Of a DNA stretch of 64,000 nt, positions 4,266 to 40,778 are shown piece after piece. The DNA lies in IMG/VR virus record IMGVR_UViG_3300029258_005088, one strand, 5' to 3'. The notes beneath the pieces are model-generated. The model was not told where the DNA came from. It did not search any database and saw nothing but the letters and a program-made list of their open reading frames with translations. A program made the position numbers and the translations under genes. Every line of letters begins with the position of its first letter. The first letter of the stretch is position 1. This DNA comes from a virus.

Positions 4266-4625
4266 TTAGTCTCCTCCGTAAAATTCCAACAGGCCTACAC
4301 AAGATGCGTGACAACGACCACTGCAGAAGACGTGGTGACCATCCATGTGGGCGTCCTCTTCCTTCAGCTCCTTGCCGCACTCCTCGCACTGGACCATGCC
4401 GTCGTATTCCTCGTAGTCGGCGCCGACGCCCTCGGTGGGGAACTGGGTGACGGTCGGATCCACGATCGTTCCGTCTTCCTTGACGCACCACCAGTGCTGT
4501 TGCCGGCCCCACATCGGGCACCAGTACCAGCCCCGGACGAGACGCAGGGTGGGATCCTTCTCGATCTCCTTCTCCGCGTACTCCTTGCACTTGCCCCGGT
4601 ACAGGGCGTATCCTTCGTCACTCAT
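4266..4625 (-). CDS. Cys/His-rich hypothetical protein
   Basis: HWWC..EDGTIVDPT segment, then CEECG and FCSGRC zinc-finger-like motifs. Confidence 0.8.
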   Translation of the reverse strand: MSDEGYALYRGKCKEYAEKEIEKDPTLRLVRGWYWCPMWGRQQHWWCVKEDGTIVDPTVTQFPTEGVGADYEEYDGMVQCEECGKELKEEDAHMDGHHVFCSGRCHASCVGLLEFYGGD

Positions 4626-10484: not shown

Positions 10485-10691
10485 CTACTGTGATTCGTAT
10501 GCGTAGTCCACGAGCTCGTCGGTATCACCCGTAAGCTCCACTTCACCCACCACTTCCACTTCCTTGGCATCAGCCTGGAAATAGTCCTTCGGCGAGTGTC
10601 CCTCACTCTCCATGTCTTCTTTGTTGATGAGCACCGTCGAGATCCTTTCGTAAGGACTTCCGATCAATGCCCGTGCTATGACCATAATCAT
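10485..10691 (-). CDS. small acidic protein
   Basis: Start trimmed to MIMVIAR (SD AGGAG). Confidence 0.65.
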   Translation of the reverse strand: MIMVIARALIGSPYERISTVLINKEDMESEGHSPKDYFQADAKEVEVVGEVELTGDTDELVDYAYESQ

Positions 10692-10747
10692 TTTAACTCC
10701 TAAAATCAGGGGGGTAAGACGGACTTCGACTGGAAAATCATCCATGG

Positions 10748-10775
10748 AAAAAAGCAGGGCATCCCGCCCTGCTTT
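10748..10775 (-). terminator. intrinsic terminator directly after a promoter
   Basis: AAAGCAGGGC-GGGAU-GCCCUGCUUUUUU. Confidence 0.85.
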
Positions 10776-10784
10776 GGACAATAC

Positions 10785-10813
10785 ATCCTACGTCAAGTCC
10801 GCGTACAAGTCAA
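10785..10813 (-). promoter_or_regulatory. sigma70-like promoter
   Basis: TTGACT-17 bp-TAGGAT, intergenic. Confidence 0.75.
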
Positions 10814-10830
10814 GTTTCGATGCGAAAACC

Positions 10831-23472: not shown

Positions 23473-23490
23473 ATAATCTCCTAGGGGATG

Positions 23491-23517
23491 AAAAAAGACC
23501 GGCCTAAATAACCGGTC
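23491..23517 (-). terminator. intrinsic terminator
   Basis: GACCGGUU-AUUUA-GGCCGGUC-U6. Confidence 0.85.
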
Positions 23518-23544
23518 CTGGATATGGTAGGGCTTATCGCCCTA
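23491..23544 (-). ncRNA. candidate ~55-nt small RNA or attenuator leader
   Basis: Predicted +1 near 23543; 5' hairpin AGGGC-GAUAA-GCCCU, linker ACCAUAUCCA, then terminator. Confidence 0.5.
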
Positions 23545-23550
23545 TGCTAG

Positions 23551-23579
23551 ACAATACTCTTCTTGTCGGCCGTAGTCAA
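23551..23579 (-). promoter_or_regulatory. sigma70-like promoter
   Basis: TTGACT-17 bp-TATTGT, fully intergenic. Confidence 0.7.
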
Positions 23580-23581
23580 TA

Positions 23582-29711: not shown

Positions 29712-30159
29712 CGGACTCCTTCGCTACGAAACACCACCCGTCGATGGTCCAGTACTCCGTACCGTCTATCTCGCACTTCCTGGCTTCGTACGTATTCAAT
29801 TCTCGCTGATCGGATCCGGGCTCGGAACCGTCGTCGTAGAAAAACTGAATACGGTGTTCAGTTTCTTCCTCCAGGGTGAAACCCTCTGCCTTCAGGAATC
29901 GGAGCATCTCCGGCTTCTCGAAGTAAGGCTCTCTCCATCCGTTCCAGTAGGAGTTGTGATCCATCATGCAGTCGAACCACTCCTCCGTGTTGATGGCCAC
30001 CTTTGCAGGCGCCCAGTCCATGCTATAGGTGGTCTCCTCCGCGGCCGTCTTCGGAATGCGGCACTGGAATCCCCCGCCAAGAGGGAAGCAAATGTAATGA
30101 TCACGCTCTTCTTCGCGTACGTCATAGTACATCTCGTCTACTTTAATCAATCGACTCAC
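29683..30159 (-). CDS. hypothetical protein
   Basis: Start trimmed to GTG (MSRLIK); WNGW..PYFEK...YWTIDGWCF motif. Confidence 0.7.
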   Translation of the reverse strand: MSRLIKVDEMYYDVREEERDHYICFPLGGGFQCRIPKTAAEETTYSMDWAPAKVAINTEEWFDCMMDHNSYWNGWREPYFEKPEMLRFLKAEGFTLEEETEHRIQFFYDDGSEPGSDQRELNTYEARKCEIDGTEYWTIDGWCFVAKESDEETERIAG

Positions 30160-30670
30160 ACTGTATCTCCGCTTCGTATTCGGGATCGGACTCCGATACC
30201 TGGTTGAAATTGAGACCACCTGCCTTCTCCAAGGCCTTCTCCTCGGCTTCCGCAACGGAGCGGGCCTTGACGATGACCTTCATCGTACGGGTGGTCGTTC
30301 GCTTGAGCTCTCCCGAGAACTTCCGCTCCCGTGGGGGAAAGTCTATCCGAATGCCAAGCTGATCCGCAAGCTCTCCGGACTCCAGAGCCTCTCTGACGAT
30401 AGCTTCATGGAACTCTCTTCCTCGGGATGCTCTCATCTTCTCCAGCCTGCCGTCGTGCTTCTGTCTGTAGCAGGGCAGGTCTCTGACGTCGAACTCGTGA
30501 CCGGCCTCGGGATCCCACAGGTCTTCCTCGTTCTCGAAGACCTTGTACCAGTCTGACAGGGCAACTCTCTCGGAGAGGTCGGTCTCGTCGTTCTTGTAGA
30601 CGTGGTAAATCGGATAGCCTTCTACTAGGAAGGCCAGATCCGGCTTGACCCAATCACTTACGTATGGCAT
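30143..30670 (-). CDS. hypothetical protein
   Basis: Minus-strand ORF in the array. Confidence 0.75.
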   Translation of the reverse strand: MPYVSDWVKPDLAFLVEGYPIYHVYKNDETDLSERVALSDWYKVFENEEDLWDPEAGHEFDVRDLPCYRQKHDGRLEKMRASRGREFHEAIVREALESGELADQLGIRIDFPPRERKFSGELKRTTTRTMKVIVKARSVAEAEEKALEKAGGLNFNQVSESDPEYEAEIQCESID

Positions 30671-37447: not shown

Positions 37448-37649
37448 GGTCCGCAGGCTCTGCGAAATCGTCCTGGAGGCCCAGCTCGCTGTTGGACACC
37501 CAGATGGAGGCGACTACCCGAGCGCCGCCTTCGGTGTCCAAGTCTATGTCTCCCTCGTCGTCGTACACGTCGATCTCTCCGTCGCCGAGTACGGCCGCCT
37601 TCGCTTTGGCGACCTCGTACGCTTTCGCTTTGATCTCTTCCAATTTCAT
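37431..37649 (-). CDS. small acidic protein
   Basis: SD AAAGGA; DIDLDTEGGARVVASIWVS. Confidence 0.75.
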   Translation of the reverse strand: MKLEEIKAKAYEVAKAKAAVLGDGEIDVYDDEGDIDLDTEGGARVVASIWVSNSELGLQDDFAEPADLAEDV

Positions 37650-37658
37650 ACCTATATT
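37630..37658 (+). promoter_or_regulatory. sigma70-like promoter for a leaderless transcript
   Basis: TTGATC-17 bp-TATATT, 5 nt before ATG 37664; no SD. Confidence 0.65.
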
Positions 37659-37663
37659 CCTTT

Positions 37664-38320
37664 ATGATTGATTCTTGTCGAAAACAGATAGCGGAAGAGG
37701 ATGCCGACGCCATCGCCGACATCCTCTGCAATGACGAAAAAGATCGGGCACCTCTACTTGATCTTCTTCGCAACACGCCCGATATCCGGGACGATGTCCT
37801 TGACGATCCACGGCTTGTCGCATCCGTAATGGAGATAGCGGACAAGTCCACTCTGCCTCCTCGTCTATACTTCTACGTAGGCGTCCGACACTTCCTGTCC
37901 AAAAAGGGCATGAACGACCGTGAGCTCGCAGATTATCTGAGTACGATGTGCATACACTTCCTGTTCCATACCCCGTGGGGAACGGACAATCCGATGATGC
38001 ACCCGGATCTCTACATAAGCCGCGTCGTCGAAGTTTTGTCGGACGCCGTGGAGACTGAGGACTGGAACAAAGCTCACTGCCTCCACAGCCATCTGGGGCA
38101 CTATCTCCTCTTCTTCACCGGGCTGTTGCACAAGGTGCTCAAGTCGATGATACGACAAGGAGGAAGGCCCATGGAGAACTACGAGGAAATAGGCAGAGCT
38201 CATTTCAAGCACGCATCGAACTTCGACGTTCCGATCGCGGACCTCTACGAGAAGCTACACAAAGACTTCCCGACCATACGGCTCTGTCTGAACGAACTCT
38301 CCATAAGCTCTTTCCTCTAG
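37664..38320 (+). CDS. host-like conserved hypothetical protein; the only clear plus-strand gene
   Basis: Fits exactly between a divergent and a convergent minus-strand gene (CTAG stop overlap); resembles, from memory, a Verrucomicrobia/PVC family (CR..., LDDPRL, LYFYV.VRH, LADY, H.G.Y.LF..G, YE..GR). Confidence 0.85.
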   Translation: MIDSCRKQIAEEDADAIADILCNDEKDRAPLLDLLRNTPDIRDDVLDDPRLVASVMEIADKSTLPPRLYFYVGVRHFLSKKGMNDRELADYLSTMCIHFLFHTPWGTDNPMMHPDLYISRVVEVLSDAVETEDWNKAHCLHSHLGHYLLFFTGLLHKVLKSMIRQGGRPMENYEEIGRAHFKHASNFDVPIADLYEKLHKDFPTIRLCLNELSISSFL

Positions 38321-38688
38321 GCGAGCTGCAGATTCGAATCTTCCGGCCAGAAGTCGGCCAGGCTGTTGAGCTTGACTTTCTTCTTGTTGCACTTCTGGCA
38401 GCGCTTCCTACGACGGAAATCACCCGTTCCTCCGCAGACCTTGCAAGGCTTGTGGGTACGGCGCCATTCCCAGCGAAATCCCTTTCCGGCACATCTGTTG
38501 CACTCGCGTACGATGAACTTGTGCTTCGAAACCTTCCGCACGTACCTGCCTTCGGAGCAGGCTTTGCAATCCTCCCTCACCTTCTCGAAACGCCTTCCCG
38601 TCCCTTTGCACTCTCTGCACTCCTCCGTTCCCTCGATGAACTTCTTTCCACGACAGGCACTGCATTGCTCTACGCTTTCTTTGGACAT
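38317..38688 (-). CDS. DnaJ-type zinc-finger-only protein
   Basis: CSACRGKK, CRECKGTG, CKACSEG, CNRCAGKG, CKVCGGTG, CQKC; SD TTGGAGG; start MSKESV. Confidence 0.85.
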   Translation of the reverse strand: MSKESVEQCSACRGKKFIEGTEECRECKGTGRRFEKVREDCKACSEGRYVRKVSKHKFIVRECNRCAGKGFRWEWRRTHKPCKVCGGTGDFRRRKRCQKCNKKKVKLNSLADFWPEDSNLQLA

Positions 38689-38714
38689 TGTAACCTCCAA
38701 GACCTTTAAAATTG

Positions 38715-38754
38715 AAAAGGCCTCCCGGCGCTCGGTCGGAAGCGCTAGGAGACC
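38715..38754 (-). terminator. intrinsic terminator of a structured leader
   Basis: GGUCUCC..GCGCU-8 nt-AGCGC..GGAGGCC-UUUU. Confidence 0.8.
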
Positions 38755-38804
38755 TGCTTGGAGGCAGAAGCATGCCCATTGCTCCTGAAGGGTCCGAAAC
38801 CCTC
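38715..38804 (-). ncRNA. candidate riboswitch/attenuator leader (~90 nt)
   Basis: 5' hairpin AGGGU-UUCGG-ACCCU; AGGAGCA-7 nt-UGCUUCU; anti-SD GCCUCCAAG; terminator. Confidence 0.55.
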
Positions 38805-38810
38805 GCAGTT

Positions 38811-38839
38811 ACTATAGGCATACGACCACCTCCAGACAA
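38811..38839 (-). promoter_or_regulatory. sigma70-like promoter
   Basis: TTGTCT-17 bp-TATAGT, fully intergenic. Confidence 0.75.
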
Positions 38840-38841
38840 AC

Positions 38842-39273
38842 CTATTCCCGTGTTATTGCATAAGATATGTCGCCATGGAGCCGTAACCGGTCCCATCGGC
38901 GGACGTCGACGCGGGAATCTCCGTATAGCCCTCTGTAGTTGGCCAGACTAAGCCAGTTCTCCTCCATCTCAACCACGAGGGCTGCGTGATTGGTGGCCTC
39001 ATCGACTTGGATAAGAAGCATGACAGGGATGTTTTCCCGTACGATCTCAATATCCGATTCGATAGGTGTCATTCTCAGGTTTAAGTGTTCCGCCGCCTCC
39101 CGCACCCGGAACATCTCCGGCATGCAGTAGCGACACTTGGTCATTGCCAGCAGTTGCATCCAGCCGTATCCCTGTACAGGCACGCTCTTCTCTCCGAAGA
39201 AAATGAGCGCGTTCAACAGAGCCAGTACGTGACAACAGTAGCCGTGATGCTGACGCTGCTGGACGTACCTCAG
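38842..39273 (-). CDS. C39/papain-like peptidase domain protein, probable CTG start
   Basis: YVQQRQHHGYCCHVLALLNAL (Gln/Cys), NHAALVV (His), SLAN; CTG overlaps the MTase TGA. Confidence 0.65.
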   Translation of the reverse strand: MRYVQQRQHHGYCCHVLALLNALIFFGEKSVPVQGYGWMQLLAMTKCRYCMPEMFRVREAAEHLNLRMTPIESDIEIVRENIPVMLLIQVDEATNHAALVVEMEENWLSLANYRGLYGDSRVDVRRWDRLRLHGDISYAITRE

Positions 39274-40778
39274 GCCGCCAAGGCGTCCAGGCAGTGCAAT
39301 ATCTGGGCCCGGCACAAGTTCCTTGCCGTCTGCACGGGAACCGCGTTCCCTATCTGCCTTATCTGATCTCCCTTGTTTCCGCAAAAGGTATACTCCTTCG
39401 GGAAGCTCATCGCCGCGGCCAGTTCATGCGGCTGAAGCATTCTGTAGTAGATGTCCAGACCTACCTGAACCAATCCGTACTTGTTGCTGCTGGCCAATAT
39501 GGTCGGGATCGGGTAGTCGACGGAATGTGGCTTGGTGTTGCCGTAGTAGTCGATCAAAAACCCGCTCTGCACCATTCCGAAACGACCCTTGGTAGGAATC
39601 GTGGCCAACGGTTTGTCCAGGCTGTGAGGAACTTTCCCGGATCCCGACCCATAGTACTGGATCAGGAAACTCTCCACCAGAGAGATCGCACCTTTCGTCG
39701 CGATCGTCGGAAGAGGGTTCTCCACAGGCCTGGGTGCGCTGCCTCCGTGCTGGCCTATGATCATCGGAGTTGCCAGGCCGAATCTGTTCCCACCTGCCGT
39801 CACAGTGTGCAGCGGATGGTTCAGGTCTCCCGTCCTCGGCGTCACTCCTCCATAGTACTCCACCAAATACGGCTCCACGAGCCCGTGGTGGGTCCCTCCT
39901 GCCGTTATTCCGTTCAGAGGGAGGTTTACGTCGCGAGCGCCTCCCGTGCCTCTCAGAATCGTTAAAAACGGCTCCATGAGATCTCCGCCGTATCTCTCGA
40001 GACCTGCGATGATCTTGTTCATGGTGTTTTCGGCAAGAGGCTTCTTGCGATCGAAGATGGACTGACTCGGGTATTCCCAGTCGATGATGTCCCTGGCAGG
40101 TATCCACGGCTTGAGACCGAACCTGGCCTCCTTGTCGTGACTAAAGGCCGGAAACGCGGGAGCGTCGGAACGACGAGCGAGAAGGAAGAACCTCCGCCTC
40201 GTCGTTGGATCTCCGTAGTCGGCGCAGTTCACGACTGCGTAACTCACGTAGTATCCACATGCCCTCAGTGCGTTCATCCATGCCTGGAAGATCTCACCCT
40301 TCTTCTCCGGATCGGGAATCATCCAGGGATCCCCGCCTTTGTTGTACATCCGCTTGCCCTTGGCATCTCTCTTCTGGATCAGAGGTCCCCAGTCCTGGAA
40401 CTCGGGGACGTTCTCGACGATGACGACTTCCGGACACAAGGCTTCCGCCCATCGGAGAACGTGCCAGGCCGTAGCCCGACTTTGATCGTCCGACGGCTTT
40501 CCGCCCTTGGCCACGGAATGATTCGTGCACTCCGGACTGGCGATCAGCATGTGAAGCTGCTTGCCTTTGTAGATCTTGCGAGGATCGACGTTATCCAGCG
40601 AGTCGCACACCGGAGTTACGTGAGGGTGATTGGCGCAGTGCGTCTTCAGCGCCTTTTCGTTGTGATTGAACGCATGCATTCTGATGTCTACACCGACGTC
40701 CGCTCCGGCCTGGAAACAGCCCTCGGCCGTTCCCCCTGCGCCAGCGAACAGATCCGCGACGTTTATGCATTTACACAT
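39270..40778 (-). CDS. dcm: DNA (cytosine-5) methyltransferase with five tandem variable-region repeats
   Basis: FAGAGG (motif I), SPEC (IV), ENV (VI), RRRFF (VIII), IGNAVP (X); repeated PLxT(I/V) units. Confidence 0.95.
   Translation of the reverse strand: MCKCINVADLFAGAGGTAEGCFQAGADVGVDIRMHAFNHNEKALKTHCANHPHVTPVCDSLDNVDPRKIYKGKQLHMLIASPECTNHSVAKGGKPSDDQSRATAWHVLRWAEALCPEVVIVENVPEFQDWGPLIQKRDAKGKRMYNKGGDPWMIPDPEKKGEIFQAWMNALRACGYYVSYAVVNCADYGDPTTRRRFFLLARRSDAPAFPAFSHDKEARFGLKPWIPARDIIDWEYPSQSIFDRKKPLAENTMNKIIAGLERYGGDLMEPFLTILRGTGGARDVNLPLNGITAGGTHHGLVEPYLVEYYGGVTPRTGDLNHPLHTVTAGGNRFGLATPMIIGQHGGSAPRPVENPLPTIATKGAISLVESFLIQYYGSGSGKVPHSLDKPLATIPTKGRFGMVQSGFLIDYYGNTKPHSVDYPIPTILASSNKYGLVQVGLDIYYRMLQPHELAAAMSFPKEYTFCGNKGDQIRQIGNAVPVQTARNLCRAQILHCLDALAA

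Follow-up and report, generated by a model that had tools for sequence, protein, structure and literature searches.

We found that the gap ahead of a small zinc-finger gene in an uncultured phage encodes a structured leader RNA, and comparison of seven distinct homologous sequences indicates that this leader is under selection. The leader RNA may gate the zinc-finger gene at two levels, through two mutually exclusive folds that would be set by where the transcript starts, a reading to which we give an even chance. The hub of the arrangement would be an antisense copy of a ribosome-binding site, consisting of the loop and 3' arm of one hairpin (P2) together with the sequence GCCUCCAAGCAG.

The window, the whole stretch of 64,000 nucleotides analysed here (IMG/VR record IMGVR_UViG_3300029258_005088), is part of a ~201-kb metagenomic contig and carries a phage replication module with SbcC, DNA polymerase, helicases and a UvsX-like protein; contig size and replication module together identify a jumbo phage. 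Nearly all of its genes lie on the minus strand, with strong GGAGG-type Shine-Dalgarno (SD) sequences. The leader gap, 153 nt long (38689-38841), separates a 157-aa gene (38842-39315, minus strand) from the 123-aa zinc-finger gene (38317-38688, minus strand). The 157-aa gene is called in all syntenic loci, with same-length homologs of 68-72% identity, and its UAG stop (38844-38842) stands 4 nt ahead of the long hairpin described below. The zinc-finger protein consists of DnaJ-type CxxCxGxG repeats only, with six CxxC pairs and no J domain; it scores 31.5 bits against PF00684 (cut-off 32.7), and this domain is given in the precomputed Pfam listing for all its relatives. Its family is small (28-41% identity, about ten clusters among 5.8 billion searched), and all 12 cysteines are invariant. 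The six invariant CxxC pairs would suffice for three zinc centres, compared with two in DnaJ, and a C-terminal motif N-x6-[FY]-[WM]-P is kept, with FWPE in the consensus (alignment A5).

Downstream, a 218-aa gene (37664-38320, plus strand) converges on the zinc-finger gene and is the sole plus-strand gene nearby. The same arrangement was found in all syntenic loci (59-74% identity), and in every one of them the stops of the two genes overlap by 4 nt. The sequence TTGATC-17-TATATT ends 6 nt ahead of the ATG of the 218-aa gene and an SD is absent (window 37630-38320, plus strand), so that its mRNA may be leaderless. In the Atlas, look-alikes of the 218-aa protein are hypothetical proteins of bacteria, with Verrucomicrobiota the most frequent source, a possible hint at the phage host; the AlphaFold model of this protein is of low quality (pLDDT 65.5). 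The neighbouring small genes gave no matches in Pfam, PHROGs or NCBIfam.

All features of the leader lie on the minus strand. A sigma-70-like promoter is predicted at 38811-38839 (-35 TTGTCT at 38839-38834, a 17-nt spacer, -10 TATAGT at 38816-38811; score 9/12), with its +1 at 38804. A decoy ribosome-binding site, UGUCUGGAGGU-N7-AUGCCUA (38815-38838), provides the 5' strand of the long hairpin (L-form). The P1 hairpin (38788-38804) begins with the predicted +1 base and is followed by the P2 hairpin, CAGGAGCA / UGCUUCUG (38765-38787), with a conserved GGGCA loop. The antisense ribosome-binding-site segment (38754-38778), the reverse complement of which reads CUUGGAGGC-N6-AUGCCCA, contains the core anti-SD GCCUCCAAG (38765-38757). 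Terminator T (38715-38754) has a 14-bp interrupted stem (38754-38719), a conserved CGACC loop and a U4 tract (38718-38715), and a GGUY box (38701-38704) lies between it and the SD. The true ribosome-binding site (38686-38701), complementary to the anti-SD, comprises CUUGGAGGU (38701-38693), 5 nt and the AUG (38688-38686). This site follows the pattern CUUGGAGG-N5-AUGUC, and the look-alike in the promoter spacer the pattern CUGGAGG-N7-A/CUGUCUA. A preliminary description of this DNA had proposed the promoter TTGTCT-17-TATAGT with a start near 38804, the hairpins P1 and P2, the terminator with U4 and the complementarity between anti-SD and SD; each of these is present in the sequence where it had been placed, and the complementarity recurs in all seven homologs.

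We then assessed how far these signals stand out in a single genome. The leader folded from +1 at -58.4 kcal/mol (z -4.7), with the anti-SD:SD helix enclosing the terminator hairpin, and from the upstream stop codon into a different structure at -79.2 kcal/mol (z -6.4). The opposite strand folded poorly (-50.6 kcal/mol, z -2.0), which argues for an RNA structure of the sense strand. Promoter-like matches are no commoner in the window genome than in shuffles, and the complementarity between the ribosome-binding-site region of the zinc-finger gene and its upstream sequence ranks 9th of 111 genes, which is not beyond chance in the window genome. With both signals at chance level, the case rests on conservation in the seven homologs. 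A cmscan of 37500-40000 against Rfam 15, with E-values up to 10, returned four weak unrelated hits, none of them within the leader. The leader thus belongs to no catalogued RNA family; the preliminary description had likewise been unable to match it to a known class.

Homologs were collected by an exhaustive HMMER search and by a search with the 157-aa protein, which led to syntenic loci sharing the gene order methylase, 157-aa gene, gap, zinc-finger gene and convergent 218-aa gene. Seven distinct leaders were retained (window, L004, L005, L007, L008, L011 and L012), a set that excludes P0008 and P0027; the leader copies in L001-L003, three contigs whose zinc-finger protein is identical to that of the window, are 100% identical and therefore uninformative. 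The zinc-finger proteins of the set are 39-41% identical to that of the window. Mean nucleotide identity is 81% in the gap (86% in its core), compared with 70% and 66% in the flanking coding DNA, and 19 nt, UGCCUCCAAGCAGGUCUCC, are invariant in all seven. No more homologs were found in GenBank phages, IMG/VR, JGI metagenome contigs or GTDB genomes. Covariance model R1 finds one leader per locus and no extra copies, and the leader core has no second match in the window at up to 3 mismatches. Nor is TGTCTATAGTA a recurrent phage motif.

Two of the related loci differ in layout. L013, the most distant relative (28% identity), has a 47-nt gap (1773-1819) with no promoter, hairpins or terminator, which indicates that the zinc-finger gene can be served by operon transcripts and that the leader was gained or lost within the clade. 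L004 has no methylase gene and a truncated copy of the 157-aa gene (102 aa), and still keeps the leader. At L004:4274-4744, the public gene call begins the zinc-finger ORF at an in-frame ATG within the leader (156 aa); the conserved SD and the ATG at 4361 point to a 127-aa protein instead.

To describe the short fold (S-form), we scored P1, P2, the anti-SD:SD helix and the terminator together in alignment A6. The results showed that 96.5% of cells were paired, compared with 37-53% in slid controls. Changes on both sides were counted in six pairs, four of P1 and two of P2, a result matched by none of 500 shuffles, although such shuffle controls overstate significance because the leaders are only seven in number and related to each other. 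RNAalifold independently gave the S-form. In P1, 97.6% of cells were paired and 4/6 pairs showed changes on both sides; in P2, all cells were paired, with two pairs changed on both sides and three with G-C/G-U changes. The earlier suggestion of a phage cis-regulatory RNA is thus supported, in the sense of a conserved RNA that is either cis-regulatory or non-coding.

In every one of the seven homologs the terminator has an energy of -22.7 to -24.8 kcal/mol and a tract of U4-U7; being a stable GC-rich hairpin with an adjoining U tract, it is predicted to be intrinsic. The opposite strand of this region has no U tract. In its stem, 99% of cells were paired, and the sole variation was a 3'-arm G->A that turns a U-G pair into U-A. 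The anti-SD:SD complementarity spans 8-11 bp in six homologs and is split into 4+5 bp in L007, and the CUU upstream of GGAG is kept complementary to the anti-SD in 6/7, again with split pairing in L007. Both sides of this helix are nearly invariant and no pair changed on both sides, so it represents conserved complementarity and not covariation: of the covariation looked for among homologs, the part in P1 and P2 was found and that between anti-SD and SD was not. Since a terminator and an SD-masking helix are both predicted, the leader can act on transcription as well as translation, as had been proposed.

The switch pairings of the preliminary description fared differently. The alternative helices GCCUCC:GGAGGC and AGGAG:CUCCU showed zero covariation, and their sole substitutions (G->A in 3/7 homologs, U->A in 1/7) break them while keeping or improving the terminator. 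The anti-SD:SD helix and the terminator are compatible, one nested around the other. Of the riboswitch reading there remains a conserved leader with a terminator and an SD-masking helix, but not the particular switch that had been put forward. In our fold models, the real mutually exclusive partner of the anti-SD is the decoy SD and AUG in the promoter spacer, which that description had missed.

The internal promoter was then examined across the seven homologs. The -10 is invariant and the -35 reads TTGTNT, varying at position 5. The spacer is 17 nt in every homolog, with its middle 8 nt different in each, although indels are frequent outside it. T33 and A34, two -10 bases that have no pairing partner, do not vary, and the predicted +1 is exactly where the covarying P1 stem sets in. 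On these sequence features, the predicted internal promoter is probable, although pairing in the L-form could account for part of the conservation of the hexamers. At 23473-23581 and 10686-10830 (minus strand), gene starts are preceded by two more modules that each consist of a promoter-like site, a hairpin and a terminator and that share the segment TATTGTC...AGGGCG..GCCCT. The window has three promoter-like sites that are intergenic and on the coding strand (38839, 23579 and 10813), and a hairpin-terminator follows each of them, a sequence pattern that fits a general strategy of promoter-proximal termination in the window phage.

In the L-form, a hairpin of ~80 nt, the anti-SD is paired to CUGGAGGU from the promoter spacer, the terminator follows, and the SD is free. 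Both the minimum-energy fold and the consensus fold pair the decoy (38815-38838) with 38778-38755; the decoy strand is flanked by the -35 and -10, and the antisense segment (38778-38755) forms the 3' strand, the true ribosome-binding site lying 55 nt further downstream. The base helix is invariant on both sides, except that a C->U in the window gives a G-U pair. The central part of the L-form was paired in ~69% of cells of the fixed alignment, compared with 100% for P2; the minimum-energy fold of each homolog's own long transcript was nonetheless the long hairpin, at -71 to -79 kcal/mol. We replaced the eight variable spacer bases by random or permuted bases and refolded the sequences. The L-form was more stable with real spacers than with random bases (z -1.5 to -2.9) and than with permuted ones in all seven homologs (z -1.6 to -2.6; fraction as good 0.013-0.087). 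The spacer and the P2 3' arm of L012 fit each other and those of no other homolog. The P2 3' arm and the anti-SD are needed by both the L-form and the S-form, which compete for them. As the spacers favour the L-form and P1 and P2 covary, these findings indicate that both folds are selected.

We calculated partition functions to compare transcripts with different 5' ends. In the transcript from +1, the unpaired probability of the SD was 0.00 in all seven homologs, with 5-9 bp formed to the anti-SD. In the transcript from 100 nt upstream, again in all seven, the decoy formed 8-11 bp with the anti-SD, and the anti-SD:SD helix was reduced to at most 0.2 bp. The SD was then unpaired with a probability of 0.01-0.66, and thus only partly open (0.01 in L011). 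In these models, the simplest trigger for the choice of fold would be the position of the transcript's 5' end.

A mechanism can be proposed on this basis. In read-through transcripts of the upstream operon, the decoy would pair with the antisense segment to give the L-form, leaving the true SD and AUG free, so that expression would be limited solely by the strong intrinsic terminator. Transcripts from the internal promoter (+1 ~38804) would lack the decoy, fold into P1 and P2, and mostly end as a ~90-nt RNA; in those that read through, the freed anti-SD would lock the SD into a helix that stacks on the terminator hairpin. The ~90-nt RNA, with its anti-SD exposed and invariant, may also silence long transcripts in trans. 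That the promoter is active, that transcripts end at the terminator, that translation is affected and that the RNA might act in trans is in each case inferred here. Read-through of the terminator would run antisense to the convergent 218-aa gene, and the terminator may therefore protect that gene. In its most novel form, which we advance only tentatively, the model is a three-part switch in which decoy, antisense and true ribosome-binding sites work together and the decoy hides a promoter; one DNA would give both a translatable long mRNA and, from the internal promoter, a ~90-nt anti-SD RNA that would shut this mRNA off in cis and in trans. Three conserved elements find no explanation in the best model: the CGACC loop of the terminator, the GGGCA loop of P2 and the GGUY box. 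The GGUY box, found 12-19 nt past the terminator in all seven homologs, can pair with the CGACC loop, as a possible pseudoknot, or with the terminator 3' end and U tract.

The products of the internal promoter would be either terminated or untranslatable, which suggests that the RNA itself is the product. A stand-alone small RNA of ~90 nt that acts in trans to repress ribosome-binding sites, its neighbour's among them, is a possible but doubtful main function, and it overlaps with the best model. The leader has the standard layout of promoter, P1, P2, single-stranded invariant seed GCCUCCAAGCAG and terminator, the seed being its most conserved part; a promoter with untranslatable read-through makes most sense for such a product, and rnTrpL offers a precedent for an attenuation-derived RNA acting in trans (PMC6614838). 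The zinc-finger gene's own ribosome-binding site ranks 2nd of 111 seed targets (-15.6 against a mean of -8.7), and CUUGGAGG-like sequences occur in three other ribosome-binding sites; however, CUUGGAGG is only weakly enriched (6 compared with 2.4 expected), and the window yielded neither additional copies nor an evident regulon. The ribosome-binding site that belongs to the gene at 30143-30670 (minus strand) is the window's best match to the 25-nt antisense segment, at -27.4 kcal/mol compared with -25.0 for the zinc-finger gene; judged by sequence, it is possibly a trans target or a chance match.

The invariant 19-mer consists of the anti-SD and the terminator 5' arm, and a protein, RNA or small molecule that bound it could block the terminator and unmask the SD. 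Such a factor-dependent ON switch, which generalises the riboswitch or attenuator idea of the preliminary description, is unlikely. It would give a role to the 19 invariant bases and to the GGGCA and CGACC loops, which exceed the needs of a plain terminator, and dual control by one RNA-binding factor has a precedent in TRAP and the B. subtilis trp leader. However, a conserved antiterminator was not found, natural variants break the proposed alternative pairings, the leader has neither an aptamer-typical multi-helix junction nor an Rfam match, a complementary RNA is absent from the window at up to 3 mismatches, and the decoy and the L-form would be left unexplained.

The long hairpin and terminator could also be no more than the structured 3' end of the upstream operon, serving stability or processing, with no internal promoter and an incidental SD match. 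The chance frequency of promoter-like sites is consistent with this, as are the L-form being both the minimum-energy fold and selected and the other gaps in the window phage that put a terminator directly before the next SD. We consider this quite unlikely, because P2 covaries though incompatible with the L-form, the CUU, which the ribosome does not need, stays complementary to the anti-SD in 6/7 homologs (split in L007), and -10 bases without a pairing partner are invariant.

It is less probable still that P1 and P2 form a cis-acting antiterminator of the put/canT type, by which polymerases from the internal promoter would pass a terminator that insulates the downstream and 218-aa genes from upstream transcription. 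The order of promoter, two hairpins and terminator resembles that of HK022 put and of Tn916 canT with its insulating T1 (PMC11658703). Replacement of P2 by the L-form in upstream transcripts would inactivate the element, and the 3/3 promoter-like sites followed by terminators agree with this design; P1 and P2, however, are short, simple and variable in sequence, and the masked SD of read-through transcripts is not accounted for. A small-molecule riboswitch acting alone is highly improbable, since neither an aptamer-like multi-helix junction nor an antiterminator was found in the leader.

Two other candidates were rejected. A small upstream ORF starting from the decoy AUG is contradicted by CUG at this position in 4/7 homologs and by indels that shift the frame, and a DNA-level operator or inverted repeat by a strand-specific structure with G-U pairs and a varying distance to the SD.

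Returning to the two-fold leader, we compared it with known systems. TRAP binds (G/U)AG repeats and works through competing antiterminator and terminator structures, and an SD-blocking hairpin for trpE exists alongside attenuation in the B. subtilis trp leader. In both leaders, one RNA governs termination and SD access in read-through transcripts (as predicted here). Unlike the trp leader with its TRAP attenuation (PMC3064811), the phage leader has no (G/U)AG repeats and no antiterminator. It is also predicted to resemble small RNAs derived from attenuation or from 5' UTRs, such as rnTrpL (PMC6614838), in being a prematurely terminated leader whose conserved single-stranded part can pair to ribosome-binding sites, but it has no leader peptide or known signal, and its trans action is only predicted.

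Lambda and HK022 were compared in the same way. Promoter-proximal terminator modules of mobile elements are found in lambda PR'-6S RNA-tR' with Q and in HK022 put. These modules, and likewise Tn916 canT, whose terminator T1 insulates (PMC11658703), have in common with the leader a terminator within ~100 nt of the promoter and, as predicted for the leader, a short RNA as the default product and possible insulation. They differ in having no SD clamp or decoy, and no Q-like or put-like sequence was identified in the leader.

The closest parallel comes from phage T4, where the DNA for the 5' strand of an RNA structure masking the ribosome-binding site also holds a promoter in genes e, soc, 49 and I-TevI (PMC3014915). 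As in those genes, the leader's predicted promoter is in the DNA of the 5' strand, and long and short transcripts are predicted to fold and be translated differently. In T4, however, the 3' strand is the ribosome-binding site itself, with long transcripts off and short ones on, whereas in the leader an antisense ribosome-binding site makes up the 3' strand and a decoy the 5' strand, so that the predicted logic is inverted; the leader also has a strong terminator between switch and gene.

This leader adds a covariation-supported RNA family from jumbo phages that are uncultured and about whose regulation hardly anything is known, and its design combines two exclusive folds, both selected, with a predicted promoter inside one of them. 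It singles out the zinc-finger protein and the gene convergent with it as being under tight control, and their functions are therefore probably dose-sensitive. If the model holds, the T4 scheme would be inverted and coupled to a terminator and possibly a small RNA; the three-part switch, if true, would be a self-contained temporal off-switch of a kind not described for phages.
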